Shown piece after piece: positions 23,164 through 62,134 of a stretch of DNA of 64,000 nt (the stretch's first letter is position 1; every line of letters begins with the position of its first letter). Below the pieces are notes generated by a model. The model saw only the letters and a list, made by a program, of their open reading frames with translations, was not told the origin of the DNA and searched no databases. Source of the stretch: an uncultured Dehalococcoidia bacterium (lineage in GTDB: Bacteria; Chloroflexota; Dehalococcoidia; DSTF01; JACRBR01); the NCBI GenBank assembly GCA_964371355.1, contig CAYJMG010000003.1:89351-153350 (forward strand), given 5' to 3'. The translations under genes were made by a program, and so were the position numbers.

Positions 23164-23422
23164 GGTGGAGTCCTCCAGGCGGGCCGGGGGGCGCGCGTTG
23201 CTGCGTCTGGGGGTGGTAGCACCCGGGCGTCCCGCGGGGGCCGTCGCGGCTGCTGCTCCGGCGTGAGCATAGCAGGAACGCGCCGAACGCTCTCCCTAAT
23301 CAATGTCACGGATGCGCATAAGCGGCTGCCCGATGCAGGGGCAAACCCCCGGTTCCGATACTCACGTGGTTTCGCGCGCGGGCGGGCCGGATGGGGGAAA
23401 CCGCGCAAGCTTCGGGGGCCGG

Positions 23423-26400: not shown

Positions 26401-29400
26401 CCCGGACGACCTGGCGGCGATCTCGCGTGGCCCGGACTGGGAACGGCCGGACTCGGTCACGTCCCTGATGCGCTATCGGCACAAGGCCGGGCACTACATC
26501 TGGATCGAATCGACCAGCAATGCGGTGCGCAACCCGCAGACCGGCGAGGTCATCGAGATCCACAACACGTCGCGCGACGTCACGGCCAGGAAGGCAGCGG
26601 AGGACGATCTGCGCGAGAGCGAGGCCCGCTTCCGCCTGCTCGCGGAAAACGCCACCGACGTCATCGGCCGCTACGCGATGGATGGCCGCTGCCTCTGGGT
26701 ATCGCCCTCGGTCACGCAGGTCCTGGGCTATGCGCCCGACGAAATCGTGGGGCAGGAACCATTCGGCCACATCCACCGCGACGACCTGCAGGACAACATG
26801 CCGTTCCGGCCGGGCGCGACGGATCTGCCGGACCAGTGGCGTACGACACTGCGCTACCGCCACAAGGACGGGCGCTGGGTGTGGCTGGAATCGACGAACC
26901 GCCCGGCCCGCGACCCGCAGACAGGCGCGATGCTCGAAGTGCACTCGACCTCGCGCGATGTCACCGCACGCATCGAGGCCGAGGAGCAGCTCCGCGCCAG
27001 CGAATCGCGGTATCGATCGCTCAGCGAATCCTCCCCGCTCGGCGTGTACGAAACAACAGCCGACGGCGACGCGACGTACTTCAACGAGCGCGCGATCCGG
27101 ATGGCCGGCATCGGCCTCGACGAGCTGAAAGGCTGGGGCTGGAGCCGTCACGTGCACCCCGACGACCGGCCGATCGTGGAAGCGGCGTGGCGTGCTGCGA
27201 CGCAGGACGGCCGTGAGTGCACCATCGAGTACCGCCTCCAGACGCCGCGCGGCATCATCTGGGTGTCCTCGCACGCCCTCCCCATCCGGCTCCCGGACGG
27301 CACTGTCGAGAAGTACGTCGGCACCATCGACAACATCACCGAACGGCGGGAGGCCCAGGAGGCAGTGCGGCGCAGCGAGCAGCTCTTCCGCGCCACGCTG
27401 GAATCGACCGCCGACGGCATCATCGTCACGCGGCCCCTTGGCGAGCTGATGTACTGGAACAACCGCGCGGCGGAGATGCTCGCGATCCCGCAGACGGTGC
27501 TGGACACCCACAGTGTGCAGGCCTTCGGGCGATACATCATCGAGAATGCCCGGGAGCCGGAGGCGCTGGTGATGGCGTTCTCCTCGCTTCCCTCCGACGA
27601 GCCCGTGCAAGCAGGCACCTGGACCGCGCGCGACGGCCGGATGTTCGAGGCCTTCGCGCACCCGCTGCACGACCCTTCGGGCGACCTACTGCGCGTGTGG
27701 AGCATCCGCGAGGTGACCGAGAAACACCAGTCGGAAATGGCGCTGCGCCAGAGCGAGGACCGGTTCCGCTCGCTGGCCGAGCACACGACGGACCTCGTCC
27801 TTGGTATCTGCGGGCCCGGCGTTATCGACTACGCGAGCCCGAACTGGTCCTCGGCAATGGGCTACAACCCCGAGGTCATGATCGGGCGGAACGCGCTCGA
27901 CTTCGTGCACCCTGACGACCTCCCGTACACCCTCGAAGAGTTCGAGCGCGCGGCGGAGGGCGACCGTGCCGTCTGCACGATGCTGCGGGCACGTCATGGG
28001 CAGACCGGCGAATGGCGCTGGTGCGAGCTGACGGCGAACTTCTACACCTCGGACATGGGCGAACAGCGCGCCGTCGTCACCGCCCGCGACGTCACCAGCC
28101 GAAAACAGGCCGAAGACGCGCTGCGGGAGAGCGAGGAGCGCCTGCGGACGGTCGTGAACAGCGTCCCCCTGGTGCTTGTCGCAGTCGACCGGGACGAGAC
28201 GGTCGTGCTCGCGGAGGGCCAGGGCCTTGGCCTGCTCGGCACTCCGACCCGGCCGCTGGTGGGCAGGTCGATCGCGGAGGAGCTGGAGAACCACCCGCAG
28301 GTGCTCGCCGACATGCGGCGCGCGCTCGCCGGTGACGAAGTCTCCACCACGACCGTGTTCGGACGCATCGTGTTCGAAGCGCACTTCCGCCCGATCTTCG
28401 ATGAACACGGCCAGCCCAACGGCATGATCGGCGTGGCATACGACATCTCGGCGCGCGTCGAGGCAGAGCGCATGTTGCGGGACAGCGAGGAGACGGCGCG
28501 CGCCCTGCTGAACGCGCCCACCGACGGCGCCGTGCTGGTCGACCGCGAGGGCACGATCCTGGCCATGAACGAGACGGCGGAACGGCGCTTCCGCGAGCAC
28601 GCCTCGAAGCAGGGTGTAGGGCCGCGCGACTTCATCGGCACGTGCGTCTTCGATATCTTCCCGCCCGACCTCCGCGCCCAGCGGCGGGCACGCAACGACG
28701 AGGTGTTCCGCAACGGCCAGCGCCGCCACTTCGAGGACGAGCGCGACGGCATCTGGACCGACGTGACCGTCGACCCAATCCGCGACGCTGACGGCAACAT
28801 CGTGCGCCTGGCGATCTTCTCCCGCGACGTCACCGACCGCAAGCGCGACGAGGCCGCCCTGCGCAAGCGCTCGCGCGAACTCGAGGCACTGAATGACTAT
28901 CTCGAGAAGACATCGGCCGAGCTTGAGCGCTCCCAGGACGAGCTGCGCGAGGCGAGCGAGCAGCTCGCGGAGCTGCTGGACGCAGAACAGGCGCGGTCGA
29001 AGACCGACACACTGACCGGAGCGCTGAACCATGGGACCATCTCCGAGGCCATCTCGGAGGCGATCGCGGCGGATGTTGCGCTCGCCGTAGCCATGGTCGA
29101 TGTGGACGGCATGAAGGCCGTCAACGACACCTACGGCCACCAGGCGGGCGACCAGGTCCTCCTCGCGGTCGTGCAGGCCATCACCCGCCCAGGCGCCATC
29201 ACCGGCCGCTACGGAGGCGACGAATTCCTGGTGGCGCTGCTGAACGCCGACCGCATCGAAGCCGAAGCCTACAGGGACGCTGTGGGGGCGGCGCTGCAAG
29301 GGGCCGGCGTGGTGGACCCCGAGAGCGGGGCCCGCGTCCCCGTCGTCGCCAGCGTGGGCATCGCCATGTACCCTGAGGACGCGGACACGCTAAAGGCGCT

Positions 29401-30664
29401 CATCGAGCGCGCGGACGAGCGCATGTACGAGGAGAAGAAGGCCCGCAAGGCCAACGGCACCGGCCTTTCGCCGTCGCGCACCATCGGCGACGAGCGCGCG
29501 GCCCGCATGGTGGGCGAGCTGGTGCCGCTGCTGACCTCCAGCGGCACGCTGGACGAGAAGCTGAGACTGGTGGCCCACCGGCTTTCCGTCGGCGCTGGCT
29601 ACGCCGGCGTGAACTTCGACGTGCTGGGCGAGCACGACGGCCGCACCACCACCGTCAACCAGAACGCCTTCACCAAGGCGCCCGACGAGGTGATCGAGGC
29701 ATGGAACCGCCACCAGCGCTCGGGCGTGAACGGTCGCATCAGCGACCTGCTGCGCCAGACGCGCCGGGCGGTGATCATCGATGACATCGCCGCCAGCCAG
29801 CTCGTGACGGAGGAGCAGAAGAAGCTGCTGCTGTCGATCGGCATCGTCTCGGGCATCGTGGTGCCGCTGTTCGACGGCGACGCGATGGTTGCCACCATGT
29901 CGGTCGGGAGCAAGGACGTATCAGGGTTCTCCCAGAGCGACATGCAGTTCCTGACGGCGGTCGCCGGCCAGGTATCGGCCATCATCCGCATGGCTCGCCT
30001 GGTGGAAGACCTGCGGCGGGCAACGGGCCGGCTGGAGGAGGCGCGCGACGAGACGGTCATGTTCCTGGCCGAAGCGGCCGAGGCCCACACACAGAGCGGC
30101 GGCCGGCACTTCCTGGCCACGCGCGCCATCGCCGAGGCGATCGCCACGGAAATGGGGTTCGACGAGGCGAGCGTGCGGGAGCTGGGCCAGGCGGCGGCTC
30201 TGCACGACATCGGCAAGATCCACCTGCCCGACGCCCTGCTGTCCAGCCCGGAGCCACTATCGCCACGGCTCGGCATCGATCCCGCCGGGCAGGCGTGGGA
30301 GACGCTGCAGCAGCACTGTGCGCGCGGGCGCGAGTTCCTGGCCCGCGGCAAGGGATTCGAGCTGGCGGCGATGGCGGCGTACATGCACCACGAACGCTGG
30401 GACGGCGCCGGATACCCGCAGGGCATCGCCGGCGACGCCATCCCCATCGAGGCGTCCATCATCGCGGTGGCCGACAGCCTCGACGCGATGATGACCGAGA
30501 GCCCCTACCAGCCCGGCCGGTCGCTGGACGAGGCGGTCGCCGAAATCCTCGCCTGTCGCGGGACGCAGTTCCGCCCGGACGTGGTCGACGCGTTGTCCCG
30601 CCTGTACGAGCGGCGCGCGCTGCACGGCGTCTGGGCTCAGGACGAGGGCGCGGAGGCGGCCTGA
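23423..30664 (+). CDS. Giant multi-PAS c-di-GMP signalling protein: GAF, 13 PAS, GGDEF, GAF, HD-GYP (about 2413 aa)
   Basis: A single uninterrupted ORF. 13 PAS units each begin with a (E/D)xLRxSE(x)RFRxL linker. Intact GGDEF (RYGGDEFLV) with upstream DVDGMKAVNDTYGHQAGD. HD-GYP (ALHDIGKI ... HHERWDGAGYP). The ATG at 23423 is taken as start; the track's 23303 start and an ATG at 23453 are alternatives. Confidence 0.85.
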   Translation: MNHQQTGSQGMQGLAADAALRAVVERVSGSSGGEFYRRLAAELGHVFRASYAGVGELSLDGERVSLLGAWSRDPTSTPGDFAVAATPAEPVAQGEIRLHRERVRREFPADQRLQRLFAESYLGVPITDGRGDVLGLIELIADTPVRDADAATAIVMAMAERTATEMERDQAEAALRDSEMRYRALIEDSFHLVAEVVDERFIYASSGYTDTLGYPPEDLLGGSVFELIHEEDRKAAAGELRAMLSQRRAAHFTVRMRHEQGAWRWIECTARAFRTSGGEFRTTLFSRDVTDRVKAEAALRESEELFRSLIKDLRVGVALHDADARVLVCNDAALALLGLTEEEVLGKTSYDDSWRPTREDGTIIPPNERPVPLAIATGAPVRDIVYGVHRPATGEQAWVLASAEPQFDADGRVHRVICSLNDITARLMAEQELRASEGRFRFLAENSMDVISRYDADGRCVWMSPSVTPLTGYTPEEVVGHSLAEIFANNDDGLLAGALANVQEGIESFRTTFQVRHKDGHQVWMEATNKVVRDPETADVIEIQTSARDISGRKRAEDELRESEARFRLLAENSTDIIARYTPGGRCIWVSPSIRSVTGRDPEAVIGQIPGHQIHPDDREGAVEAMRALAAGEDQRTYTFRFQHVDGHYIWLEAHARAIRDAGGALTEVQTSSRDVTARMNAEDELRESETRFRLLAENATDMISRFALDGTRLWVSPSVQAITGYSQEETMQSGPVDNVHPDDVAALQTSFRAMVDGEASRRTTFRFRHRDGRYLWLEADGRAIRDEDGRVIEIQSSARDVTARKQAEEELRESEGRFRLLAHNSTDIIGRFSPDGRCVWISPSAQPITGYTPEEIVAAAPAKFVHPDDALEVWNAFNGMVESGATQRATFRFRHKDGHYIWLEANGRAVRDDTGQVVEIHSATRDVTARMEAEDDLRESEGRFRLLAENATDMIGRFTPDGVCLWVSPSVTAVMGYEPAELIGQNLREGIHPDDLAAISRGPDWERPDSVTSLMRYRHKAGHYIWIESTSNAVRNPQTGEVIEIHNTSRDVTARKAAEDDLRESEARFRLLAENATDVIGRYAMDGRCLWVSPSVTQVLGYAPDEIVGQEPFGHIHRDDLQDNMPFRPGATDLPDQWRTTLRYRHKDGRWVWLESTNRPARDPQTGAMLEVHSTSRDVTARIEAEEQLRASESRYRSLSESSPLGVYETTADGDATYFNERAIRMAGIGLDELKGWGWSRHVHPDDRPIVEAAWRAATQDGRECTIEYRLQTPRGIIWVSSHALPIRLPDGTVEKYVGTIDNITERREAQEAVRRSEQLFRATLESTADGIIVTRPLGELMYWNNRAAEMLAIPQTVLDTHSVQAFGRYIIENAREPEALVMAFSSLPSDEPVQAGTWTARDGRMFEAFAHPLHDPSGDLLRVWSIREVTEKHQSEMALRQSEDRFRSLAEHTTDLVLGICGPGVIDYASPNWSSAMGYNPEVMIGRNALDFVHPDDLPYTLEEFERAAEGDRAVCTMLRARHGQTGEWRWCELTANFYTSDMGEQRAVVTARDVTSRKQAEDALRESEERLRTVVNSVPLVLVAVDRDETVVLAEGQGLGLLGTPTRPLVGRSIAEELENHPQVLADMRRALAGDEVSTTTVFGRIVFEAHFRPIFDEHGQPNGMIGVAYDISARVEAERMLRDSEETARALLNAPTDGAVLVDREGTILAMNETAERRFREHASKQGVGPRDFIGTCVFDIFPPDLRAQRRARNDEVFRNGQRRHFEDERDGIWTDVTVDPIRDADGNIVRLAIFSRDVTDRKRDEAALRKRSRELEALNDYLEKTSAELERSQDELREASEQLAELLDAEQARSKTDTLTGALNHGTISEAISEAIAADVALAVAMVDVDGMKAVNDTYGHQAGDQVLLAVVQAITRPGAITGRYGGDEFLVALLNADRIEAEAYRDAVGAALQGAGVVDPESGARVPVVASVGIAMYPEDADTLKALIERADERMYEEKKARKANGTGLSPSRTIGDERAARMVGELVPLLTSSGTLDEKLRLVAHRLSVGAGYAGVNFDVLGEHDGRTTTVNQNAFTKAPDEVIEAWNRHQRSGVNGRISDLLRQTRRAVIIDDIAASQLVTEEQKKLLLSIGIVSGIVVPLFDGDAMVATMSVGSKDVSGFSQSDMQFLTAVAGQVSAIIRMARLVEDLRRATGRLEEARDETVMFLAEAAEAHTQSGGRHFLATRAIAEAIATEMGFDEASVRELGQAAALHDIGKIHLPDALLSSPEPLSPRLGIDPAGQAWETLQQHCARGREFLARGKGFELAAMAAYMHHERWDGAGYPQGIAGDAIPIEASIIAVADSLDAMMTESPYQPGRSLDEAVAEILACRGTQFRPDVVDALSRLYERRALHGVWAQDEGAEAA
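24712..26985 (+). repeat. Six tandem 375-381-bp direct repeat units (PAS-domain-encoding) inside the giant signalling gene
   Basis: Unit boundaries at 24712, 25093, 25474, 25849, 26224 and 26605. They all begin ga(g/a)ga(c/g)ga..tgcg.gagagcgag...cg.ttc.g.ctgct.gc.ga.aac. The encoded PAS units share RFRHKDGHYIWLE-type cores. Confidence 0.75.
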
Positions 30665-47121: not shown

Positions 47122-48978
47122 CTACGGGCACTGCCCCCCGGCTGAGATGATGACCGCCAGCGTGAGCTGGTCGCCCGCGTTCACGCCGCCGTCCTTGTTC
47201 ACATCGAAGCTCACCAGGCGCAAGCTCGGCGAGGGCTCGCGCAGGATCTCCTGCAGCATCAGGAGCTGGTCGCCGGCGTTCACAACGCGGTCGTTGTTCA
47301 GCGACGCCGCCTCGCACCCGTCCTTCGTCGGTCCCGGGTTGGGCGAGCCGTCCAGGTCGGCGTCCGTGTCGGCGTCGTTCGGGTCCGTGTTGTAGCCGCA
47401 GACCTCGGCGCGGTCAGGGATGTGGTCGCCGTCGCTGTCGGCGCTCGAGCCGCAGGCTGCGGCCGTCGGCTTGCTGGCCGCGCTGGCCGGGTTCGTGCCC
47501 AGGACGCACTCCGGGCCGTCCAGCACGCGGTCGCCGTCCGTGTCGCGATCCGTCGCGCCCAGCGGCCCGCTGCCGTTGCACCCCGCGGCCTCGTTCGCGT
47601 CCAGGATGCCGTCGTTGTCGTCGTCTGTATCGCAGGCGTCGCCGGCGGCGTCGCTGTTCGGCCACGAGCGGTCGTCCTGCGTCGAGGGAGGCGTCTGGTC
47701 GATGAAGTTCCGGTCCGCGTTCTCCTGGCCCGGGTTCGGGTCGGCCGGACAGTTGTCCACGCTGTCGACAACGCCGTCGCCATCGCTGTCCCCAACGGAG
47801 ACGATGCGCTGAATCGTCCCGCCGAAGTAGTCGGCGACGTACACCTCGCCCCCGCTGTCCTCGCCGAAGCTGCTGATCAGGAACGGAGCCGTCAGCTCCT
47901 CAGCATAGGACCACGTAGGACTGCCCGGCGTCGCGCTCCAGATCTTGCCCGAGCAGAAGTCGCCAAAGACGTACCTCCCCGCGATCGACGGTACCTGCGA
48001 GCCGCGGTACCGGAACCCGCCCGTAATCGAGCACTCCCCGGCGCCGTGCGCGTACTCGATGATGGGCGCCGTGAACGATGGGTCGCCGCAACCGGGTGGG
48101 TCGCCGGGCGTATAGCACGACGTGCCCTCCATGATCCGCCAGCCGTAGTTCGCCCCGCCCGCCGCGCCGGCCGCCTGGAAGTCGACTTCCTCGCGCGAGT
48201 ATTGCCCCACGTCGCCGATGAGCAGGTCGCCCGTCGTACGGTCGAAGCTGAACCTCCACGGGTTGCGCAGACCGTACGCCCAGATCTCGTCGCGCCCCGG
48301 AGTCGCCCCGGCGAAGGGGTTACCGGGCGGGATGCCGTGATAGGGCGGCTGGTTCACCTCCTGGTCCACATCGAGTCGCAGGATCTTGCCGAGCAGTACG
48401 TTCAAGTTCTGCGCGTTGTTCGCCGGATCACCCACACTCCCGCCATCGCCGACCGCGATGTACAGGTAGCCGTCCGGCCCGAATGCGAGCTGGCCACCGT
48501 AGTGGTTGTCGTTCGTCGGGTGCGGGATCGTCAGCAGCGGCACGCCCGATCCCGCGTCGGCGATATCCGGATTCGCGGACACGCTGTAGCGCCTGATCGC
48601 GATGTCGCCGGATGCATTCACGTAGTGGATGAAGAAGTACGGCGTCGCCGGATAGTCCGGATGGAACGCCAGCCCCAGCAACCCCTCCTCTTGCGCAGGC
48701 GACGACGGCAGCAGCGACGACACGTCGAGGAATGACGTCGCCAGGATCGCGCCCGCATCGTAGATCTTGATCCGCCCGCCCCTCTCGATGATGAACAGCC
48801 GCGTGTCACCCGCGTGCGCCAACCCCAGCGGAGAACTGAGGCCGGTGGCGCCCGCAAGCGGCTGCAGCGCGATGGTGCCTGCGGCGCTGACCGGCGCGGT
48901 TTCATGACGCCGCGCCTGCACTCCCAGTACGAGTGCGACGGCGCCAAGTGCGAGGCAAAGGGGGACCAGTCGTGTCAC
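47122..48978 (-). CDS. Secreted PQQ-dependent sugar dehydrogenase (GSDH/sorbosone-DH-like beta-propeller) with TSP3 repeats and a C-terminal dockerin-like domain
   Basis: Signal peptide after the GTG at 48978. GSDH motifs (GLLGLAFHPDY, YGLRNPWRFSFD). Ca-binding TSP3-type D.D.DG.xD repeats. Two 22-residue dockerin-type repeats (LNNDRVVNAGDQLLM; FDVNKDGGVNAGDQL). Start position is uncertain (the track's ATG at 49095 is the alternative). Confidence 0.8.
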   Translation of the reverse strand: MTRLVPLCLALGAVALVLGVQARRHETAPVSAAGTIALQPLAGATGLSSPLGLAHAGDTRLFIIERGGRIKIYDAGAILATSFLDVSSLLPSSPAQEEGLLGLAFHPDYPATPYFFIHYVNASGDIAIRRYSVSANPDIADAGSGVPLLTIPHPTNDNHYGGQLAFGPDGYLYIAVGDGGSVGDPANNAQNLNVLLGKILRLDVDQEVNQPPYHGIPPGNPFAGATPGRDEIWAYGLRNPWRFSFDRTTGDLLIGDVGQYSREEVDFQAAGAAGGANYGWRIMEGTSCYTPGDPPGCGDPSFTAPIIEYAHGAGECSITGGFRYRGSQVPSIAGRYVFGDFCSGKIWSATPGSPTWSYAEELTAPFLISSFGEDSGGEVYVADYFGGTIQRIVSVGDSDGDGVVDSVDNCPADPNPGQENADRNFIDQTPPSTQDDRSWPNSDAAGDACDTDDDNDGILDANEAAGCNGSGPLGATDRDTDGDRVLDGPECVLGTNPASAASKPTAAACGSSADSDGDHIPDRAEVCGYNTDPNDADTDADLDGSPNPGPTKDGCEAASLNNDRVVNAGDQLLMLQEILREPSPSLRLVSFDVNKDGGVNAGDQLTLAVIISAGGQCP

Positions 48979-49130
48979 GCGGAGGCCACTCCCATCATGC
49001 GGCGTGTGTCGTATGTGGCGGGGGAGGCCCGGAGGCCGCGGCCAGTATAGCCGGTCAATGATGACGGACACGTAAACATTTCCGTGGTCGCGCATGCGCC
49101 ACGAGTTAGATGCTGTGCAATTTCCAGCCC

Positions 49131-49235
49131 GGCACTCTTACGGACACTGCCCCGTGGGCGAGATGAACTGCGCGGGCAGCAGCTGGTCGCCGGCGTCCAC
49201 CGCCCCGTCCCTGTCCACGTCGAAGATCACCAGTC
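49131..49235 (-). pseudogene. Orphan 3' fragment of a dockerin-like module (third copy; gene remnant)
   Basis: The minus strand encodes ...RRLVIFDVDRDGAVDAGDQLLPAQFISPTGQCP* ending at the TAA (49131-49133). It is co-linear at DNA level with the 3' ends of the genes at 47122 and 50617. The upstream reading frame has no propeller or TSP3 similarity. Confidence 0.45.
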
Positions 49236-49310
49236 GCCGCGCTTCCGGCGCCGCTTCGAGGCCGCCGCCTTCGTGACCGTGCGCGTCTGCGCCTGCACGA
49301 CGGTCTCCGC

Positions 49311-49700
49311 CTACTCGATCGCATCGAGCCTGTCGAGCAGCCAGCCTGCGCCGTGCACCGCCGCGCCCAGCCTACCGGCGCGGTCCGCGAGCACACGGTC
49401 GGAAGTGACGACCTCGAGAGAGGCTGGCTCGGCGTGCGCGCGGACGTACTCGACGATGCGGTCGTCGGCTGCGTTCCGGCCAGGGCGCGCGGCGTAGTAC
49501 ACGCCCACGCCGCCGTGCTCGCCCTCGGGCACGTCATCCAGAGGCCGGCCGTCGACAAACAGGCTCACGTCGAGGTCGCCGTGCGCCGCCAGCCGTTGCA
49601 GTTTCGCCAGCAGCCCGCGCACCGCGCCGTCGCGGTCGCGCCACCACCCGGTCGGCCGCGATCCGATCACGTTCATCGCATCGACGACGATGTGTGCCAC
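49311..49700 (-). CDS. YacP-like NYN domain protein
   Basis: IVVDAMNVIGSRP, ADDRIVEY, and VVTSDRVLADRAGRLGA parallel the B. subtilis YacP/Rae1 NYN motifs. Confidence 0.7.
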   Translation of the reverse strand: MAHIVVDAMNVIGSRPTGWWRDRDGAVRGLLAKLQRLAAHGDLDVSLFVDGRPLDDVPEGEHGGVGVYYAARPGRNAADDRIVEYVRAHAEPASLEVVTSDRVLADRAGRLGAAVHGAGWLLDRLDAIE

Positions 49701-49733
49701 GTTGCAGGATACCGATGAGCAGCAGGGGGGTGG

Positions 49734-50405
49734 CTACCGCAGCTCGAAGTCGTCCGACACGCGGTCCAGCGCATCGAGCGAGTACAACCGGTCGTACATC
49801 ACGCTACGGGGGTCGGTCGACATCGCGAGACCGAGGTGGAGCACCCCGATGTTCTTGCCCACCATCTTCGCTGCACGCAGGAAGAGCAGGTCATCGTCCC
49901 GCCGCTCCCCGAAGTTCACCGGGTCCATCCGGGCGACAGATACGACCGCCGTGTTCGTCGAGATGTCCCGTAGAGAGAACACGAAGTTCCAGTCGGGCTT
50001 GTCCAGCATGTACATGTCGTGGTCGGTGACGGCGATGAGGACGTCGCCGGCATTCTCCGCCGGCCGGGCGGCCTCCATCACCTCCAGCACGCGGTCGGCC
50101 ACCAGTTGGCGCCGCTCCTCGTCGAACATCGACCGGTCGACGGGAAGCGCCGGCAACACGCCGACGTTGACTGCGTGCGTGTCGCGGAAGTAGGCCTGCA
50201 GCCCCTCCATCATGTCCTCGGAGATTTCGTCGACCGGCACCAGGTACACATCCGCGCTGCCCGTGAACGCGACCGCCTCGACCGGCGCCCGCGTCGCCGC
50301 GGGAGAAGGAGCCGCCGCCTCGCGCCCAGGCGACGCCTTGTCGCCGCCCAGGCACGCCGAGCCCAATAGCAGCGTCGCGAAGAGTGCCAGCCACAAAGAT
50401 CGCAT
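49734..50405 (-). CDS. Hypothetical secreted protein / lipoprotein
   Basis: ATG at 50405 gives the signal peptide MRSLWLALFATLLLGSACLGG. No recognisable catalytic motif. The track ORF extends 38 codons further upstream. Confidence 0.45.
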   Translation of the reverse strand: MRSLWLALFATLLLGSACLGGDKASPGREAAAPSPAATRAPVEAVAFTGSADVYLVPVDEISEDMMEGLQAYFRDTHAVNVGVLPALPVDRSMFDEERRQLVADRVLEVMEAARPAENAGDVLIAVTDHDMYMLDKPDWNFVFSLRDISTNTAVVSVARMDPVNFGERRDDDLLFLRAAKMVGKNIGVLHLGLAMSTDPRSVMYDRLYSLDALDRVSDDFELR

Positions 50406-50616
50406 CAGTCGAAGTATCGGCGACCGCCGAACGCGAGTGAAGGGGCGACGCGAAAGGGCCGTCAGGGATCGGTATGGAGCGCGGGCGCCCTCGCCCGCGG
50501 CCGCAGCGCATTGCTCCACCCCTGCGGGAGGTCACCCTGCCCCATCACTGCACGTCACCCTTGGGCCCTCCCCCACTGTCGGGAGAGAATCATCCGGCCA
50601 GGCGCTGGCGCTCCGA

Positions 50617-52617
50617 TCACGGACACTGCCCCGAGGGCGAGATGAACTGCGCGATCAGGAGCTGGTCGCCAGCGTTGACGGCGCCGTCCTTGTTGATGTC
50701 GTAGCTCACTAGCCGCATCGACGGTGTCAGCTCCCGCAGGATCTCCAGGACCATCAGCAGCTGATCGCCCGCATTCACCACGCGGTCACCGTTCAACGAC
50801 GCCGCCTCGCACCCGTCCTTCGCACCGTCCAGCGCCATGTCACCGTCGGTGTCGGCGATGTTCGGATTGGTGTTGTACCCGCAGAACTCGGTACGGGCGC
50901 TCAGGCGGTCGCCGTCGACATCCGTCGTCGGCCCGCACTGCGCGGGGGTGGGCTTGCTCGCGCTCGATGTGGGGTCCGTCGCCAACACACACTCCACACC
51001 GTCGAGGATGCGGTCGCCGTCGGAGTCACGCAGGAGCGGATCGGTGACCTTCCCGCCACAGAAGGCGCCGGTGCCTTCGTCGGCGTCGCTGATGCCGTCG
51101 TTGTCGTCGTCGGTGTCGCACTCGTCACCCAGCGCGTCCGACTTCGGCCACGTCTTGTCGTCCTGCGTCGTCGGCGGCGTGCTGTCGATGAAATTACCGT
51201 CGGTGTTCACCTGATCGGCGTTCGGGAGGCCAACGCAATTGTCGTAATCCAAGTTGGTATTTGAGGGACCTTCGTGGAGTGACGCAGTACAGTCACGCGT
51301 TGCATCTCCATCCAAGTCCCCGGCGTTAGACGTGCAGTAGCGGATTAAGGGGACATCCGCCCCAACATTGGCCCAAACGAATACATCACCTAAGCCATCC
51401 GCGCCGACCCACATCCCGCCGTCATGTAGCTCTTCAGCCCCCGGATGAGTCTGTTCCCACCGCATTGAGCCGTCTGGAGCGTAAGCTCTTGTCACAACCT
51501 CAGCGCCACTCTGTGCGATCAGAATCACTCCGTAGGGATCGGACGCCAGAAGGGTCGTATTGCCCTTGAGCGGACTCGCGATGGTCATGGGCGCAAGATC
51601 GTGACGCCATGACTGATTTCCAGCCGCATCGTATCGCAGCACTCCGATTGTTTGAGACGCTAAGCCAAGCGCCTCATACACCCCTCCGGCGCCGTCGTGG
51701 ACAATTTCGATCGGGCTGCCATCACCCGAAACACGATTCCAATCTTTTCCGCAGGATGAGTTGTACTTCACAGTTCGGTTGAGACCCCCCGGATGAACCA
51801 GTCCTGTCACAATTGCACCGCCACTGGGAAGGGCTATTAGGCGATCCGGGCCGCCACCCTCGTTGTTCGTGTTATTGTCGAAGCTATCGGTACAGATTGG
51901 GTTGCCGGCTGAGTCATAGATTGAAACGAACCAATCCGGGCCACTGGATGCAGCTGAACTGACGCCGACGTAGACACGACCAATCGCATCTACGCCGATG
52001 TCGGCCGGGTTGTCGTGGTCCGATGTGAGATCTAAATCGCGTTGCCACTGGAACGAACCGGACGCATCGTACTTGCGTATAACGCTGTACCTGTGTGACC
52101 CAGGCTGGGTGGTTCCGAGAACGTACACGTTGTCCGAACTATCGGTACTAATCGCTGACCCAAAGTCAGCCGCCGAGTTATTCCACATCTGGCTCCACAG
52201 TAGGTTCCCGTTGCTATCGTATTTGGAGACGTACCAGTCGGTTGGAGTGAAGGTATTCGGATCACCAGCTGTCCCGACAATCCAGAAGTATTGCTCGCTC
52301 ATGGCGAACTCGAAGTCAGTCATATACAGAGCAGCGCAAGGAGACGCACAAGGGTCGTTCAAACTCGTCCAAAGTAATGCACCATCTCGCGAGTACTTCC
52401 TTATGCCCTCGGACGGCATCTGATAGGCGGCGTAAGACGCCACGTAAACGTGTCCACTTGAATCCACCGCGCCAAACCCACCATTTGTCCACGGAGTGCC
52501 GGGGAGCATCCTTTGCCAGTCGAACGCAGCGACTTCGGCCTGTATCTGGCCCGGTGAGACGAACAAGAGAGTAGTGAGGATCACAAAGCTCGAGACGAGG
52601 CGAAGGTGGTTGCTCAT
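50617..52617 (-). CDS. Secreted beta-propeller-repeat protein with TSP3 repeats and a C-terminal dockerin-like domain (paralog of the 47122 gene in its C-terminal half)
   Basis: Signal peptide MSNHLRLVSSFVILTTLLFVSPGQIQA, repeated YV.G-type beta-propeller blades, TSP3 D.D.DG repeats, and a dockerin-like end (LNGDRVVNAGDQLLMV; YDINKDGAVNAGDQLL...GQCP). The N-terminal about 1.4 kb is markedly lower in GC than the surroundings. Confidence 0.75.
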   Translation of the reverse strand: MSNHLRLVSSFVILTTLLFVSPGQIQAEVAAFDWQRMLPGTPWTNGGFGAVDSSGHVYVASYAAYQMPSEGIRKYSRDGALLWTSLNDPCASPCAALYMTDFEFAMSEQYFWIVGTAGDPNTFTPTDWYVSKYDSNGNLLWSQMWNNSAADFGSAISTDSSDNVYVLGTTQPGSHRYSVIRKYDASGSFQWQRDLDLTSDHDNPADIGVDAIGRVYVGVSSAASSGPDWFVSIYDSAGNPICTDSFDNNTNNEGGGPDRLIALPSGGAIVTGLVHPGGLNRTVKYNSSCGKDWNRVSGDGSPIEIVHDGAGGVYEALGLASQTIGVLRYDAAGNQSWRHDLAPMTIASPLKGNTTLLASDPYGVILIAQSGAEVVTRAYAPDGSMRWEQTHPGAEELHDGGMWVGADGLGDVFVWANVGADVPLIRYCTSNAGDLDGDATRDCTASLHEGPSNTNLDYDNCVGLPNADQVNTDGNFIDSTPPTTQDDKTWPKSDALGDECDTDDDNDGISDADEGTGAFCGGKVTDPLLRDSDGDRILDGVECVLATDPTSSASKPTPAQCGPTTDVDGDRLSARTEFCGYNTNPNIADTDGDMALDGAKDGCEAASLNGDRVVNAGDQLLMVLEILRELTPSMRLVSYDINKDGAVNAGDQLLIAQFISPSGQCP

Positions 52618-52931
52618 TGGCCTACCTTAGAGGTCCATGCCGTGAGAGGTCCATCTCGTGCGGGGTCCGATTGACAGTCAGTATCATGCTCCCCTCCACG
52701 GTAACCGTCTAGTACCTACCTCGCTTGTCCTCGGCGCGGCTTCCAAGTTCCTTGGCCGGCGCCAGGGGCCATCCCGGATCGCGCGGCCCGCCAACCGCCT
52801 CTCCTCGGGGATTACCGCAATTGCAGGGCGTGCTAGACTCGATGAGAATCTGATCGCGTGGGCGAACAATTCCCCCGCGTCCATCCCGAAGCGGGCGCCG
52901 CCGCCCGCACCACCGACGAAGGAGAGCGGCC

Positions 52932-55358
52932 ATGCCCCGCCGGCGGTCGCCTGTAGACGACACCATGATCCTGCCGCTGCTCCCAAGGCGGCGCGGCCTC
53001 CTGTTCCCCAACACCGCGGGCGCCATCCTCATCGGCCGCCGCAGCAGCCTCCGCGCCGTCGAGGACAGCACCAACGCTGACGGCATGTGCGCCGTCGTCA
53101 CCCAGAAGGACCCCTCGCTCACCGAGATCACCCAGGCCGACATCTACCCCTATGCCACCGAGGCCAATATCCAGCGCGCGCTCCGCCTGCCCGACGGCAC
53201 CACACAGGTGTGGGTCCAGGGCTTCCGCCGTCTGCGCGTCGTCGAGATCGTCCGGGCGGAGCCCTACTACATGGCGCGCGTCGAGCCCATTGAGGACTTC
53301 GACGACAACACCGTCGCCTCCGAAGCGCTGCGGCGCGCGGTCCTCGCCCTGTTCGAGAAGGTCGCCCGCCTGGCGCCCAGCATCCCCGAAGACGCCTACG
53401 TGCTGGCGATGAACGTCGAGCAGCCGGGCCTGCTCGCCGATTTCGTCGCGTCGTCGCTGAACCTCGACGACGAGCAGGGCGCCGATATCCTCGCGACCAT
53501 CGACACGCGCCAGCGGCTGGAGAAGATCAGCATCCACCTGGCGAAGGAGCTCGACGTCCTCGAATTGCAGGGCAAGATCCACACCCGCGTGCAGGAGGAG
53601 CTGGACAAGTCGCAGCGCGAGTACTTCCTGCGCGAACAGATGAAGGCCATCCAGCGCGAGCTGGGCGAGACCGACCCCGCGGCAAAAGACGCCTACGACC
53701 TGCGCGAACGCATCGCCGCCGCCGGCATGCCCGAGGACGCGCGCAAGAAAGCCGAAGACGAGCTGCGCCGCATGGAAGGGATCCCCTCCGCCTCGCCCGA
53801 GGTCGGCGTCATCCGCAACTACCTCGACTGGCTCACCTCCGTGCCCTGGCTGAAGGCAACCGATGACAACCTCGACCTGGAGCACGCGGCGAAGATCCTC
53901 GACCAGCATCACTTCGGCCTGCAAAAGGTGAAGGAGCGCATCCTGGAGTTCATGGCCGTGCGCGCGCTGGCGAAGGAAAAGCACCGCAGCCCCATCCTCT
54001 GCTTCGTGGGCCCGCCCGGCGTCGGCAAGACCAGCCTGGGCCGCTCGATCGCCGAGGCGCTGGGCCGGAAGTTCGTGCGCGTTTCGCTGGGCGGCATACG
54101 CGACGAGGCGGAAATCCGTGGCCACCGCCGCACGTACGTCGGCGCGCTGCCCGGCCGCATCGTCCACGGCATGAAGCAGGCGGGCACCGTCAACCCGCTG
54201 TTCATGCTCGATGAGATCGACAAGCTCGGCACCGACTTCCGCGGTGACCCTTCGTCGGCGCTGCTGGAGGTCTTGGATCCGGAGCAGAACCACGCCTTCA
54301 GCGACCACTACCTCGACGTCGACTACGACCTCTCGAAGGTGATGTTCATCGCCACCGCGAACATCCTCGACCCCGTGATCCCCGCGCTGCGCGACCGCAT
54401 GGAAGTGATCGAGCTGCCCGGCTACATCGAGGACGAGAAGCTACACATCGCGCAGCAGTTCCTGGTGCCGAAACAGTTGCAGGAGCACGGCCTCAGCAAG
54501 TTGCAGCTCTCGTTCACCACCGGCGCCCTACGCAAGATCATCCGCGAGTACACGCGCGAGGCCGGCGTACGCAACCTGGAGCGCGAGATCGGCGGCATCT
54601 GCCGCAAGGTCGCCCGCCGCATGGCCGGTGCGCCGGTGCTGGTAGCGCGGCCGTCGCGGGCGGCTGCGGCGAAATCGCTGGCGAAGGCCCGGCTGAAGAC
54701 GGCGCCGGCCGTGCGCCCCGGCGTCAGCATCAGCAACGCCAACCTGGAGGAGTACCTGGGCCCGCCGAAGTTCTTCTGGGGTGCGGCCGAGGAGAAGGAT
54801 GAGGTCGGCGTGGCTACAGGCGTCGCGCGCACGGAGTTGGGCGGCGACGTGCTCGGCGTCGAGGTGACGCTGATGCCCGGCAAGGGCAACCTGACGCTCA
54901 CCGGCCAGCTCGGCGACGTGATGCGCGAGTCGGCGCAGGCCGCCCTGTCGTACGCGCGGTCGCGGTCGAAGGACCTGGGCATCCCGCCCGAGACGTTCGA
55001 GAAGACGGACATCCACGTCCACGTGCCGGCGGGCGCCGTCCCGAAGGAGGGCCCCAGCGCCGGCATCACCATCGCCACCGCGCTCATCTCCGCCCTGACC
55101 AAGCGCCCCATCAGCCGGCATGTGGCCATGACGGGCGAGATCACCCTGCGCGGCCGGGTGCTGCCGGTGGGCGGACTGAAGGAGAAGATCCTGGCCGCAC
55201 ACCGCGCTGGAATCAAGACATTTGTTCTACCCAAGCGCAACGAGAAGGACCTCAGCGATGTCCCCGCCCCGGTTTTGAGGGATCTGCGGTTCGTGTTCGC
55301 GGGCGATATGGCCGATGTTCTAAAGGTAGCGTTCGAACATCGGAGGCCGGGACCGTGA
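52932..55358 (+). CDS. lon: ATP-dependent Lon protease
   Basis: LON N-domain (ILPLLPRRRGLLFPNTAGAILIGR), AAA+ Walker A GPPGVGKTSLG, and the Ser-Lys protease domain (PKEGPSAGITIATALISAL). GAAGGAGAG RBS. Confidence 0.95.
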   Translation: MPRRRSPVDDTMILPLLPRRRGLLFPNTAGAILIGRRSSLRAVEDSTNADGMCAVVTQKDPSLTEITQADIYPYATEANIQRALRLPDGTTQVWVQGFRRLRVVEIVRAEPYYMARVEPIEDFDDNTVASEALRRAVLALFEKVARLAPSIPEDAYVLAMNVEQPGLLADFVASSLNLDDEQGADILATIDTRQRLEKISIHLAKELDVLELQGKIHTRVQEELDKSQREYFLREQMKAIQRELGETDPAAKDAYDLRERIAAAGMPEDARKKAEDELRRMEGIPSASPEVGVIRNYLDWLTSVPWLKATDDNLDLEHAAKILDQHHFGLQKVKERILEFMAVRALAKEKHRSPILCFVGPPGVGKTSLGRSIAEALGRKFVRVSLGGIRDEAEIRGHRRTYVGALPGRIVHGMKQAGTVNPLFMLDEIDKLGTDFRGDPSSALLEVLDPEQNHAFSDHYLDVDYDLSKVMFIATANILDPVIPALRDRMEVIELPGYIEDEKLHIAQQFLVPKQLQEHGLSKLQLSFTTGALRKIIREYTREAGVRNLEREIGGICRKVARRMAGAPVLVARPSRAAAAKSLAKARLKTAPAVRPGVSISNANLEEYLGPPKFFWGAAEEKDEVGVATGVARTELGGDVLGVEVTLMPGKGNLTLTGQLGDVMRESAQAALSYARSRSKDLGIPPETFEKTDIHVHVPAGAVPKEGPSAGITIATALISALTKRPISRHVAMTGEITLRGRVLPVGGLKEKILAAHRAGIKTFVLPKRNEKDLSDVPAPVLRDLRFVFAGDMADVLKVAFEHRRPGP

Positions 55359-59602: not shown

Positions 59603-59933
59603 CCGATCGCCTTCCCGCAGGCGCACGGGCATCGTGGGTGGCGCGGCCCGGGCATATCCGATTGAAGCTAACGACAGATTCGCAGGCAGCCGCGACCCGG
59701 CTGTCTGGTCGACGGTCTGCGCCGCACCTGGCGACGGTCGCTGGGTGCGCGTTCTGTCAAGGAGCGGAGCCGCAACAGTGCGCGTCAGGCGCGCGTTGTA
59801 GGTGACAGCGACGGCAGGCCCGCGGGCCGCCCCGGCGGCGCCCACCGCGTCCGCCCCCGAACAAGGACATCTCCCCGCGGGTGGCGGGGTATGTAAGTTC
59901 ACACGACCTGTTGGTCAAGTGCAGGAGGGTTCA

Positions 59934-60185
59934 GTGATTAACACAGTCATGCTTTCAGCGATGACGTGGGTGACCAGCACGGTCGGCTCCCTCGTCGCCC
60001 GAATCAAGGAAGAGCGCGGCCAGGACATCATGGAGTACGCCGTCCTCGCCGGCGCGATTGCGCTGGTGGCTGGTTTCGTCCTCATCGGCGGAACAGTGGC
60101 TGGAATCGACATTGCCGGTGCCGTCGAGGATTTCGGAGTAGAGGTCACTGAATGCATCGGCATTCAGGATGGCTGCGGAAGCTAG
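59934..60185 (+). CDS. flp: Flp family type IVb pilin precursor
   Basis: Prepilin peptidase motif G/QDIMEY followed by a hydrophobic helix AVLAGAIALVAGFVLIGG. A GTG at 59934 has AGGAGG 5 nt upstream; the ATG at 59949 is an alternative (24-aa leader). The mature C-terminus has two Cys (ECIGIQDGCGS). Confidence 0.75.
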   Translation: MINTVMLSAMTWVTSTVGSLVARIKEERGQDIMEYAVLAGAIALVAGFVLIGGTVAGIDIAGAVEDFGVEVTECIGIQDGCGS

Positions 60186-60215
60186 GTCACCAGACAGATA
60201 GGCCACAGGGCCGCC

Positions 60216-60683
60216 ATGCGTAAGAAGCAAGAGCGAGGCGAACTCGGCCAGGGACTGGTCGAGTTCGCCATCGTTTTCCCTCTGCTGGTCTTCTTCCTGT
60301 TCGCGATCGTCGAAGCCGGTCTCGGCTTTCAGCGCCAGGCTACGCTCCAGCACGCCGTCCGCGAGGGCGCGAGGTATGGCGCCCTCCGCGACAACGCCGA
60401 CGTAGGGGCGTATGTGCAACAGCGGACCAGCGATCAGTCGCACGGACTAGTCGAACTCAACGACGTTGTGATCTGCTTTACCGACATGGACGGTGACACC
60501 CAGATCGGAGCGGGGGACGCCATCGATGTGCAGGTGATCTACGCGTACCAGCCCAGCTTCCTGAAGAGCGCCGCGGGCCTTTTCGGGGCCATCGTCCCAA
60601 GCTCGTTCACCATCGACGTAACCGGCAGCGCGCGTCTTGAGGTAGCGCTGGACGACCCCAACCCCGGGAACATTTGCTCATGA
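60216..60683 (+). CDS. tadE: TadE/TadG-like pilus assembly protein (pseudopilin)
   Basis: N-terminal GQGLVEFAIVFPLLVFFLFAIVEAG TadE-like helix (PF07811 pattern). Confidence 0.75.
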   Translation: MRKKQERGELGQGLVEFAIVFPLLVFFLFAIVEAGLGFQRQATLQHAVREGARYGALRDNADVGAYVQQRTSDQSHGLVELNDVVICFTDMDGDTQIGAGDAIDVQVIYAYQPSFLKSAAGLFGAIVPSSFTIDVTGSARLEVALDDPNPGNICS

Positions 60684-62134
60684 ATGGGTCGGCCTCCGTT
60701 CGTCATCTCACGAAACTTGTGCACGCGGACGAGCGCGGGCAGGTGTTCATCATCTTCACGGCGGTGATCACGGTCATCATGGCCGCCGCTGTGATCGGCA
60801 TCGACTACAGCATGTGGCTCAGCGAGCGTCGCGGCATCGCCCGGGCCGCCGATCTGGCAGCGCTCGCTGCAATCAGGGACCTCCCCGCCGATCCAGTGGT
60901 CGATACCGTGTACACCGAAGGAGCCTGCGACACCGATGCTTGCACGGCGGTCTACGACTGGGCTGGCCGCAACGGGTACGGTGAGCTGGACAACGCAGAC
61001 GTCCGCGTTGCCTACTTCTGCAGCAACACCATCGCCTTTCCGCCGGATGGGTTCTGCAAGAACGAGCAGCGCAGTGACCCCGTGCTCCCGATCAGTCCTT
61101 GTCCATCCGAAGCCGGTGAGGTCGGTTGCGATTCCGTCCGCGTTTCGATTCAGAAGGAGGCGGTCAACCTGTTCGGCGCCTTCTTCGGCGGCATCAACTT
61201 CGACGTAGGGTACACGTCCTTCGCCCGCGTCTCGTTCCGCATCGCCCCGTTGGACACGGTGATGTCCATCGACGCCAGCGGCAGCATGGACAATGGGTGC
61301 AGCCCGGCGCAAGATAACGTCGGTTGTCCGATCCGTGAAGCGCGGAAAGCGGCGAATGACTTCGTTACGATCCTGCTGGGAGACGATCCCGATGAAGGGA
61401 ACGTGCAGGTCGGGTATGCGCCCTACCGCGCGTGCTACAACCCGCCAAGCGGGGCGGGCTCCTGCGTGCCATCTTTAGGCATAGACGCAACCGATTGCGG
61501 TAACCCACCATCGTCGTCTTGGGTGCTCTGCCTCGGCAAAGACCCAGACTTGCTCCGCAACAGATTCGCCGCGACGATGCCGGGCTCATCCACGAACGTG
61601 TGCCTGGGGATGTTTGAATCCGGCGAGATCCTGGCCGGGCCCGGGATGAATCAGAATCCTGAGGCTCAACGCTTCCTGGTCCTACTGACGGACGGGGAGA
61701 ACTACTACCCGGTCGACCCGGATGCCCAGGCTGAGCTCCAACTGCCTCCGGACTGCATCCCAAACAACCAGAACAGCAACAACAACTTCGACTGCGACGA
61801 TGCACCCAGCCCGGCTGAACGCGGTCTCGACACCAAGACGATGGAGATGGCGGACGACCTGAAGGCTCAGGGCGTCGAGATCTACGTCGTGGGCCTTAAC
61901 GTCTGTGATATCGAGGACGGGACGATATGGGACGTCAATCCCGGCTTCTGCAATGCCATCGGGAACGGTCAGGATGACGATGTCGCGAACCGGCGACTGC
62001 TAAAGTGCATCGCGTCCTCGAATCCGGGTACCAACGACCACTACAACGAAGCGAACGCCATAGACCTCGGCGACATCTTCCAGGGTGTGGCGTATGAAAT
62101 CGCCGGGCGCGGCCTTTCGACGGAACCTCCCTGA
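60674..62134 (+). CDS. tadG: TadG-like pilus assembly protein with vWA domain
   Basis: N-terminal Tad_N-like helix (ERGQVFIIFTAVITVIMAAAVIGIDYSMW). vWA MIDAS residues (MSIDASGSM ... LLTDGENY). Confidence 0.75.
   Translation: MLMNGSASVRHLTKLVHADERGQVFIIFTAVITVIMAAAVIGIDYSMWLSERRGIARAADLAALAAIRDLPADPVVDTVYTEGACDTDACTAVYDWAGRNGYGELDNADVRVAYFCSNTIAFPPDGFCKNEQRSDPVLPISPCPSEAGEVGCDSVRVSIQKEAVNLFGAFFGGINFDVGYTSFARVSFRIAPLDTVMSIDASGSMDNGCSPAQDNVGCPIREARKAANDFVTILLGDDPDEGNVQVGYAPYRACYNPPSGAGSCVPSLGIDATDCGNPPSSSWVLCLGKDPDLLRNRFAATMPGSSTNVCLGMFESGEILAGPGMNQNPEAQRFLVLLTDGENYYPVDPDAQAELQLPPDCIPNNQNSNNNFDCDDAPSPAERGLDTKTMEMADDLKAQGVEIYVVGLNVCDIEDGTIWDVNPGFCNAIGNGQDDDVANRRLLKCIASSNPGTNDHYNEANAIDLGDIFQGVAYEIAGRGLSTEPP

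Follow-up and report, generated by a model that had tools for sequence, protein, structure and literature searches.

Mosaic genes that arise by homologous recombination between species are well known from the penicillin-binding-protein (PBP) genes of Streptococcus pneumoniae and Neisseria, and the one-sided homologous anchoring of foreign DNA, termed homology-facilitated illegitimate recombination, is known from the transformation of Acinetobacter and of pneumococcus. In Rhs, CdiA and other polymorphic-toxin loci, a variable tip, whose GC content is atypical and usually lower, is replaced by way of a constant region that acts as the handle. The gene considered here, gene B (50617-52617, minus strand), lies in a 64,000-nucleotide stretch of DNA from an uncultured Dehalococcoidia bacterium (GenBank assembly GCA_964371355.1, contig CAYJMG010000003.1, positions 89,351 to 153,350 of the forward strand), which is referred to as the window and numbered from its first letter. 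Gene B is probably a recombinant of two members of one Chloroflexota secreted-protein family, with its head segment drawn from a lineage of lower GC content, and the event belongs to a known class, that of mosaic genes formed by recombination with imported homologues.

As in the PBP mosaics, gene B carries an apparently imported block within an intact open reading frame (ORF), with the crossover placed inside homology between donor and recipient and the reading frame kept. Unlike in those genes, the block is a whole unrelated head domain with its leader rather than a diverged allele, the GC contrast is very large, only one of the two boundaries lies in homology, and neither parent sequence was found in the searches described below. 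The resemblance to homology-facilitated illegitimate recombination lies in the two joints, one in shared tail homology and the other in unrelated intergenic DNA near 52729; unlike in the Acinetobacter and pneumococcal case, the mechanism is read from the product only. As in the polymorphic toxins, constant and variable parts are combined in one ORF, the variable part is compositionally foreign, and a relic of the constant region lies nearby (49140-49242). The polarity is reversed, however, as the variable part of gene B is N-terminal and includes promoter and signal peptide, and gene B differs further in being without a toxin or immunity gene, the heads of its family being propellers, proteases and dehydrogenases.

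Base composition and the position of the junction

Gene B and its parts are located as follows, with the basis of each assignment in brackets; GC3 denotes GC content at third codon positions, and GC1 and GC2 that at first and second positions.

50617-52617, minus strand: gene B, an intact ORF of 666 codons encoding a signal peptide, an SBBP-type beta-propeller, thrombospondin type 3 (TSP3)-like acidic repeats and a type I dockerin (ORF list, Pfam, homologues)
51183-52729, no strand: low-GC tract (maximum-likelihood fit of two change points to GC; 1400-bp window of minimum GC in the 64 kb)
52618-52729, minus strand: 5' leader and promoter region of low GC, 0.571 (composition)
52537-52617, minus strand: predicted Sec signal peptide, residues 1-27, MSNHLRLVSSFVILTTLLFVSPGQIQA/EV (read from the translation, cleavage site inferred)
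51334-52530, minus strand: beta-propeller head, residues ~30-428, with 32 predicted strands and a GC3 of 0.60 (AlphaFold2, Foldseek)
50617-51318, minus strand: conserved tail module, residues 434-666, from D-LDGD to ...SPSGQCP plus stop (22-sequence alignment A2; 96 relatives)
51193-51318, minus strand: first 42 codons of the tail module (434-475), of foreign composition, GC3 0.57 (GC3)
51177-51258, minus strand: proposed recombination junction, codons 453-480, NLDYDNCVGLPNADQVNTDGNFIDSTPP (support interval of the GC3 change point)
50641-50796, minus strand: type I dockerin at residues 608-659, the two repeats of its calcium loop reading SLNGDRVVNAGD and DINKDGAVNAGD (Pfam PF00404)

The initial annotation, made from the sequence alone, had described an abrupt low-GC segment at 51230-52700 that covered the N-terminal part of the gene and its 5' leader. 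A two-change-point maximum-likelihood fit placed the tract at 51183-52729, within 50 bp of those coordinates, with a GC of 0.558 inside it and of 0.680 and 0.674 in the flanks (mean of the 64-kb window, 0.681). The drop was borne out, and its size, given as about 52% against about 70%, had been slightly overstated, the measured values being 56% and 68%. In a windowed calculation the drop was significant: the 1400-bp window of minimum GC in the whole 64 kb starts at 51251 (0.559 against a mean of 0.682, standard deviation 0.025, z about -4.8), and 13 of the 16 300-bp windows below 60% GC, including all of those below 58.5%, lie at 51101-52700. A 200-bp sliding profile passes from 0.67-0.70 to 0.51-0.60 between ~51100 and ~52700 and then recovers, the lowest single windows in the tract standing at 51% GC.

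Codon usage changes with it. Within gene B, GC3 is 0.61 over codons 1-475 and 0.895 over codons 476-666 (Fisher p = 3.5e-14), and GC1, GC2 and GC3 are 0.57, 0.50 and 0.61 for codons 1-461 and 0.63, 0.48 and 0.90 over codons 476-666; GC3 values of 0.72-0.94 were obtained for the other 46 ORFs tabulated in the window. With the window's own genes as reference set, the head has a codon adaptation index (CAI) of 0.358 and the tail one of 0.725, against 0.672 +/- 0.070 for the window genes (minimum 0.525). The GC shift in gene B thus sits in synonymous sites. The different codon usage that had been proposed is therefore present, as are the two AT-rich strings quoted in its support (51239-51266 and 51871-51900). 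That the 5' leader shares the low GC also holds, with weaker support: the 112 bp upstream of the gene B ATG have a GC of 0.571, against 0.64-0.77 in the other intergenic regions of the window (binomial p = 0.005), and the 200 bp beyond the leader, toward lon, have a GC of 0.698.

Elsewhere in the window, the next-lowest GC3 values (0.78-0.79) belong to a TadE-like gene (60216-60683) and a TadG-like gene (60674-62134) of a Tad pilus, and the remaining 300-bp windows below 60% GC outside the gene B region all lie in this Tad-pilus region (59900-62134).

The composition break can be set against the limits of the fold and of the family module. The propeller fold ends at residue 428 in the AlphaFold2 model, and the family-wide tail module begins at residue 434 with the motif D-x-DGD (alignment A2, 22 members). 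Codons 434-461 have a GC3 of 0.50 (p = 1.9e-7 against the native 0.895), and low GC3 persists to codons 461-475. As the foreign and native GC3 values differ by 0.3, the position of the crossover can be narrowed to about 80 bp, the junction interval of codons 453-480 being the part of the likelihood profile within 2 log-likelihood units of the maximum. The junction thus falls within the shared tail module, in register, and not at the domain boundary. The low GC3 that continues past residue 434 indicates that the foreign DNA already carried the first 30-40 codons of a tail module, and a junction inside shared homology, in frame, points to homologous recombination between two family members rather than to de novo fusion. 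The module segment at residues 434-475 (42 residues) is too short for a tree of the parental lineages.

The initial annotation had read the gene as a mosaic whose high-GC 3' part is shared with a paralogue at 47122-49095, here paralogue A, and both the GC3 break and the tail homology to paralogue A uphold this. It had further placed the junction between the propeller and the TSP3/dockerin module and taken it as an in-frame fusion of a foreign propeller onto a native anchor. The measured positions do not agree with that placement, and the foreign composition of codons 434-461 contradicts the fusion, so that the substance of a horizontally derived mosaic stands and the proposed junction and mechanism do not. 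We consider it unlikely that a tail-less foreign propeller fragment was joined illegitimately onto a native anchor at the domain boundary. Such an origin would fit a composition break close to the head/tail boundary, and homology to paralogue A, in protein and in DNA, begins at residue 459 (~51243), where GC rises. Low GC3 nevertheless runs past both the end of the fold and the start of the module, and the low-GC module segment (D.DGD....H.GP.NT....DNC) is common to about ten members with unrelated heads. This 'long form' of the module start (..PQQ..H.GP.NT....D before an invariant DNC) was found in about ten members of the 22-sequence alignment, which carry unrelated heads, a PT linker or a signal peptide only; it is present in gene B and absent from paralogue A. 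Illegitimate joining would also not be expected to give an in-register join within a conserved motif, here NCVGLPNADQVNTDGNFIDSTPP.

Coding status, domain architecture and assembly support

The reading frame of the head is open, and each of the other frames across it holds 18-20 stop codons. The AlphaFold2 model of the head, run with 48 homologues, has a mean predicted local distance difference test score (pLDDT) of 79.7 and a predicted template modelling score (pTM) of 0.81, and its 32 strands, from residue 31 to residue 428, form eight four-stranded blades; a helix at residues 4-18 falls in the signal-peptide region. The best Foldseek matches in the PDB are propellers, namely the CylK propeller, the eight-bladed YxaL and the designed Cake8 (E 1e-15 to 1e-11), and the assignment of the N-terminal domain as a beta-propeller is accordingly supported. 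As in the SBBP family (PF06739), the predicted fold of the head is a propeller, and its sequence homologues carry PF06739 (E 1e-33 to 1e-20, with up to 96% of the head covered). Unlike typical SBBP proteins, the gene B head is very diverged, with best identities of 30-40% and a Pfam SBBP score of 17.4 bits, under the cut-off of 20.5; PQQ_2 also falls under its Pfam cut-off.

The C-terminal end of gene B matches Pfam Dockerin_1 (PF00404) with 30.9 bits against a cut-off of 22.9, two D.N.DG..N.GD loops can be read from it, and with phmmer the tail matches structures of the Clostridium thermocellum Xyn10B dockerin (2CCL, 1OHZ; E ~1e-3). No match of gene B to the thrombospondin type 3 models (PF02412 / PF18884) was found at E <= 0.01, against 32.6 bits for paralogue A; gene B aligns with tail relatives that bear PF02412 or PF18884, and the DxDxDxDG motifs are invariant. 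Like the dockerin proteins of cellulosomes, and the non-cellulosomal ones of many bacteria and archaea, the family combines diverse heads with a type I dockerin that is C-terminal and has two calcium-binding repeats. It differs from the cellulosomal dockerins in the long TSP3-like, acidic, cysteine-containing spacer before the dockerin, in the tail end GQCP and in its host, a Chloroflexota (Dehalococcoidia-like) metagenome-assembled genome (MAG) and not a cellulolytic Firmicute. The product is predicted to be an exported, ligand-binding propeller displayed on a calcium-binding TSP3-like spacer and dockerin tail. No cohesin was found in the five other window proteins that were scanned against Pfam.

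In the public assemblies gene B is recorded on 24 contigs of up to 325 kb, of which 23 were read, and its gene call is as follows.

50617-51588, minus strand: truncated gene call of 323 aa starting at Met344 (the MTIASPLKGN start of database protein P0001 corresponds to residue 344 of gene B)

The 1343 bp from this call to lon (L001 8658-10000) are left without a gene, and the full 666 aa are called in one assembly only (P0092). The 323-aa database protein is without the signal peptide and without six of the eight blades. The atypical composition evidently misled gene callers, so that the first 343 codons were dropped on 24 public contigs. It might be argued from these uncalled codons that the 323-aa product is the real gene and the low-GC stretch upstream of it a non-coding, decayed remnant, which we regard as scarcely credible. 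A decayed remnant would not be expected to leave a frame open for 666 codons in 56%-GC DNA beside 18-20 stops in each other frame, nor to encode a signal peptide, eight modelled blades and SBBP homology of the extent given above; the Met344 product, moreover, would have no signal peptide and would start within the propeller, at the seventh predicted blade, and the full-length call in one assembly is a further point against it. Many short 'dockerin-only' relatives in databases (200-340 aa) may be similar truncations that hide heads.

Independent assemblies for three samples bear on the integrity of the sequence. A 118-kb SPAdes contig (L001, sample ERZ13692934) matches the window at 99.995% over 21 kb, a 92-kb SPAdes contig (L002, ERZ13692941) at 100% over 16 kb and a contig from a third sample (L092, ERZ13692948) at 99.95% over 3.7 kb, and each of the three spans both junctions. 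A chimera, in which reads of a lower-GC organism were misjoined at the conserved tail module, is conceivable in that the module is repeated and multi-copy, with ~78% DNA identity between paralogues, and in that many family members lie at contig ends. The tract is internal, however, and 1.55 kb long, and its second boundary lies in unique intergenic DNA by lon, so that two misjoins would be needed. Because both junctions are reproduced at 99.95-100% in the assemblies of three samples, an assembly artefact is very unlikely.

The tail family and the proposed origin of gene B

Database relatives of the tail number 96 at E <= 1e-3 and are up to 78% identical; they come mostly from Chloroflexi/Chloroflexota MAGs and metagenomes, and many lie at contig ends. 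No literature on this dockerin/TSP3 tail family in Chloroflexi was found. The closest relatives lie on Chloroflexi MAG contigs of 68-69% GC (L086 1-942 and L087 1-987; MAG GCA_016213125.1, of which contigs JACRBR010000320 and JACRBR010000216 carry these two genes). In one of them, P0095, GC3 rises from 0.58 to 0.87 at codon 81-105, the module start; in the other, P0093, the rise is from 0.67 to 0.90 and falls at codon 151-216, 45-110 codons past the module start. These two genes are the two closest relatives of the gene B tail and have the same polarity as gene B. Control genes without a GC3 jump are paralogue A, its orthologue on contig L089 and the amidase-headed gene on L086, in which head GC3 is 0.85, 0.81 and 0.96, respectively. 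As the jumps in P0093 and P0095 lie at other positions and have the same polarity, the sequences suggest that the tail may be a repeated site of exchange.

Lower-GC members of the family occur as well. A gene with an NHL-like head (L088 3901-6819, JGI Ga0326597_10000155) has a GC3 of 0.65-0.70, its neighbours having 0.76-0.83, and directly adjoins recombinase-like ORFs; the uniformly lower GC3 (about 0.67) together with these ORFs suggests carriage on mobile DNA. A tail-module gene at the very end of a 38.6-kb contig (L093 233-886, JGI Ga0434951_287841) has a GC3 of 0.73, the other genes of the contig having 0.89-0.95, and a second family gene lies 3.4 kb away. A composition like that of the donor thus exists within the family. 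Tandem clusters are seen on an ENA contig (L085 1-16762, ERZ25039469 contig_169766) on which at least 7 tail copies, behind heads of the Peptidase_S8 and NHL/SBBP-like types, share 16.7 kb; many of its gene calls are fragmented, probably by assembly frameshifts. Other heads in the family are of the penicillin-amidase (L086) and Kelch (L083) types. No clear mosaics were seen in contigs L085, L094 and L095, assemblies with fragmented genes in which frames are unreliable, and what looked like a low-GC3 'head' at L085 5264 was set aside as it overlaps another frame.

The event in gene B would have taken place in a family whose N-terminal heads vary and whose C-terminal tail, of TSP3-like acidic repeats and type I dockerin, is constant. 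A lineage of lower GC would have supplied ~1.55 kb, consisting of ~110 bp of 5' leader, the signal peptide, the SBBP-type propeller with its eight blades and, from the donor's own tail module, the first 30-40 codons. The donor would be another organism with the same family, and from the GC1/GC2/GC3 values of the segment (0.57/0.50/0.61) its genome would have roughly 52-56% GC if the segment is unameliorated. The crossover would have occurred in register inside the conserved tail, at codons 453-480 (51177-51258), with resident high-GC DNA from there to the stop. The tail lineage is long resident in the neighbourhood of gene B, as follows from its host-like CAI, the closest tails being in Chloroflexi contigs of 68-69% GC, and the tail relic, which is 83% identical.

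Two routes could have led to this structure, and it is from the product that we infer foreign origin, direction of exchange and mechanism. In the first, the head and leader of a resident gene would have been replaced through a single homologous crossover within the tail together with illegitimate joining near 52729, in the intergenic region between lon and gene B; this would be a case of homology-facilitated illegitimate recombination and is the most economical. In the second, its mirror image with the same product, the whole gene would have been imported and its tail later converted by a resident paralogue. The first route is slightly preferred, since the native tract runs exactly to the gene end and into native 3' flank.

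Several observations weigh against a recombinant origin. No donor and no close head homologue was found in 5.8 billion proteins, 1.84 billion cluster representatives, JGI metagenome contigs and plasmids, so that the homology search of the low-GC part did not lead to a donor lineage. Apart from gene B itself, the best of the head matches (37,207 representative proteins at E <= 1e-3) were SBBP proteins ~30-40% identical over repeats; of the parental lineages, then, the tail has relatives up to 78% identical and the head none above ~40%. No resident paralogue with a near-identical tail is present in the 64-kb window, paralogue A being only 65% identical, and no syntenic relative with an unswapped gene B was found among the relatives examined (L003 and L089). 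In L003, retrieved in a Lon-based genome scan (Lon 77% identical), no homologue of gene B or paralogue A stands next to lon; L089 (KAS 84% identical), syntenic for DinB, KAS and paralogue A, is without gene B, the NYN gene and lon upstream. Synteny is broken in both, and the ancestral state of the locus is not recoverable from either. No integrase or tRNA marking the tract was found, there is no Rfam match in 49000-53200, and a repeat search found no repeats flanking 51183 and 52729. The dinucleotide delta* of the tract is only mildly atypical (0.101 against 0.068 +/- 0.020, rank 21 of 298 windows, top 7%), and the amino-acid composition of the head (GARP and FYMINK fractions) is ~1 standard deviation or less from that of host proteins. 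The contigs of P0093 and P0095 both end within the low-GC part, in a short-read MAG and with junctions in the repeated module, and these two mosaics could be assembly chimeras.

The same absence of a donor and of mobility marks, the near-host amino-acid composition, the mild dinucleotide signature and the recurrence of low-GC heads on high-GC tails in two relatives would suit a native gene in which head and leader had drifted toward AT by local mutation bias or relaxed constraint (for example under diversifying selection) and the multi-copy tail had been kept GC-rich by exchange between paralogues. We nonetheless hold this to be improbable. The boundaries of the tract are sharp and one of them lies within a conserved module, the ORF is intact over 666 codons as described, and the heads of the other members are GC3-rich. 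Single-copy genes, which are without paralogue exchange, also have a GC3 of 0.72-0.94, which places the anomaly in the head rather than in the tail. In a search of the surroundings that was not exhaustive, neither a reverse transcriptase nor a template repeat was noticed. Recombination between two family members remains the favoured origin of gene B.

More tentatively, the tail may be a standing recombination handle through which whole heads, with their leaders and signal peptides, are repeatedly exchanged between lineages of different GC; we think this possible but doubtful. It is suggested by three genes in two genomes with low-GC 5' parts on high-GC tails, each joined at its own point in or at the module, and further by low-GC members in high-GC neighbourhoods, tandem tail clusters and the tail relic. 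Two SBBP proteins with dockerins (P0010 and P0022) were considered as donor-type architectures and rejected, as they have unrelated dockerins with PEP-CTERM-like ends after them. Spread of the family on phages was likewise rejected, the single weak match of the tail to a viral contig (40% identical) counting against it.

Neighbourhood of gene B and meaning of the mosaic

The following features accompany gene B in the window.

47122-49095, minus strand: paralogue A, with a GSDH beta-propeller head and the same kind of tail, GC3 0.85-0.94 throughout (Pfam GSDH, TSP_3, Dockerin_1; GC3 profile)
49140-49242, minus strand: third tail module, reduced to a relic of its last 34 codons with the stop, RLVIFDVDRDGAVDAGDQLLPAQFISPTGQCP* (tblastn, nucleotide identity)
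52629-52660, minus strand: tandem 16-nt direct repeat in the gene B leader, 11-42 nt upstream of the ATG (repeat family D18, 88% identity)

The tails of gene B and paralogue A are 57% identical in amino acids by full-length BLASTP and 65% identical over the tail alone by tblastn. Paralogue A has no internal GC3 jump except in the signal-peptide region. Its longest ORF has 657 codons, against 618 aa in the public call, and its first ~65 codons have a GC3 of 0.66, from which the gene probably begins downstream of its first ATG. The tail relic, 1.4 kb from gene B, lies between an NYN-domain gene and paralogue A. The identity of its DNA to the 3' ends of the two genes is 83% for gene B and 76% for paralogue A. 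The neighbours of gene B are lon, cvpA, the NYN-domain gene and a hypothetical gene; the adjoining Lon shares 77% identity with the Lon of an uncultured Dehalococcoidia MAG, its other best matches being from Chloroflexota. Farther away, a giant signalling protein of 2453 aa (23303-30664, plus strand) has about a dozen PAS domains and, after them, GGDEF, GAF and HD-GYP-type domains. The copies of the leader repeat read AGAGGTCCATGCCGTG / AGAGGTCCATCTCGTG on the plus strand, and the repeat could be a regulatory site imported together with the head. No sigma-70-like promoter was found for gene B.

At this locus the rebuilding of a secreted multidomain protein can be seen at base level with unusual sharpness. 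With the crossover inside the conserved module, the shared tail can be a landing pad for new heads across lineages. A practical lesson is that 5' parts of atypical composition can escape gene callers, so that database proteins may lose their heads. If the recurrent pattern is true, it would amount to a head-exchange system for the surface proteins of Chloroflexota, whose extracellular biology is little known: a cassette system that would renew the repertoire of surface-displayed proteins, with a polarity the reverse of polymorphic-toxin tip swapping.

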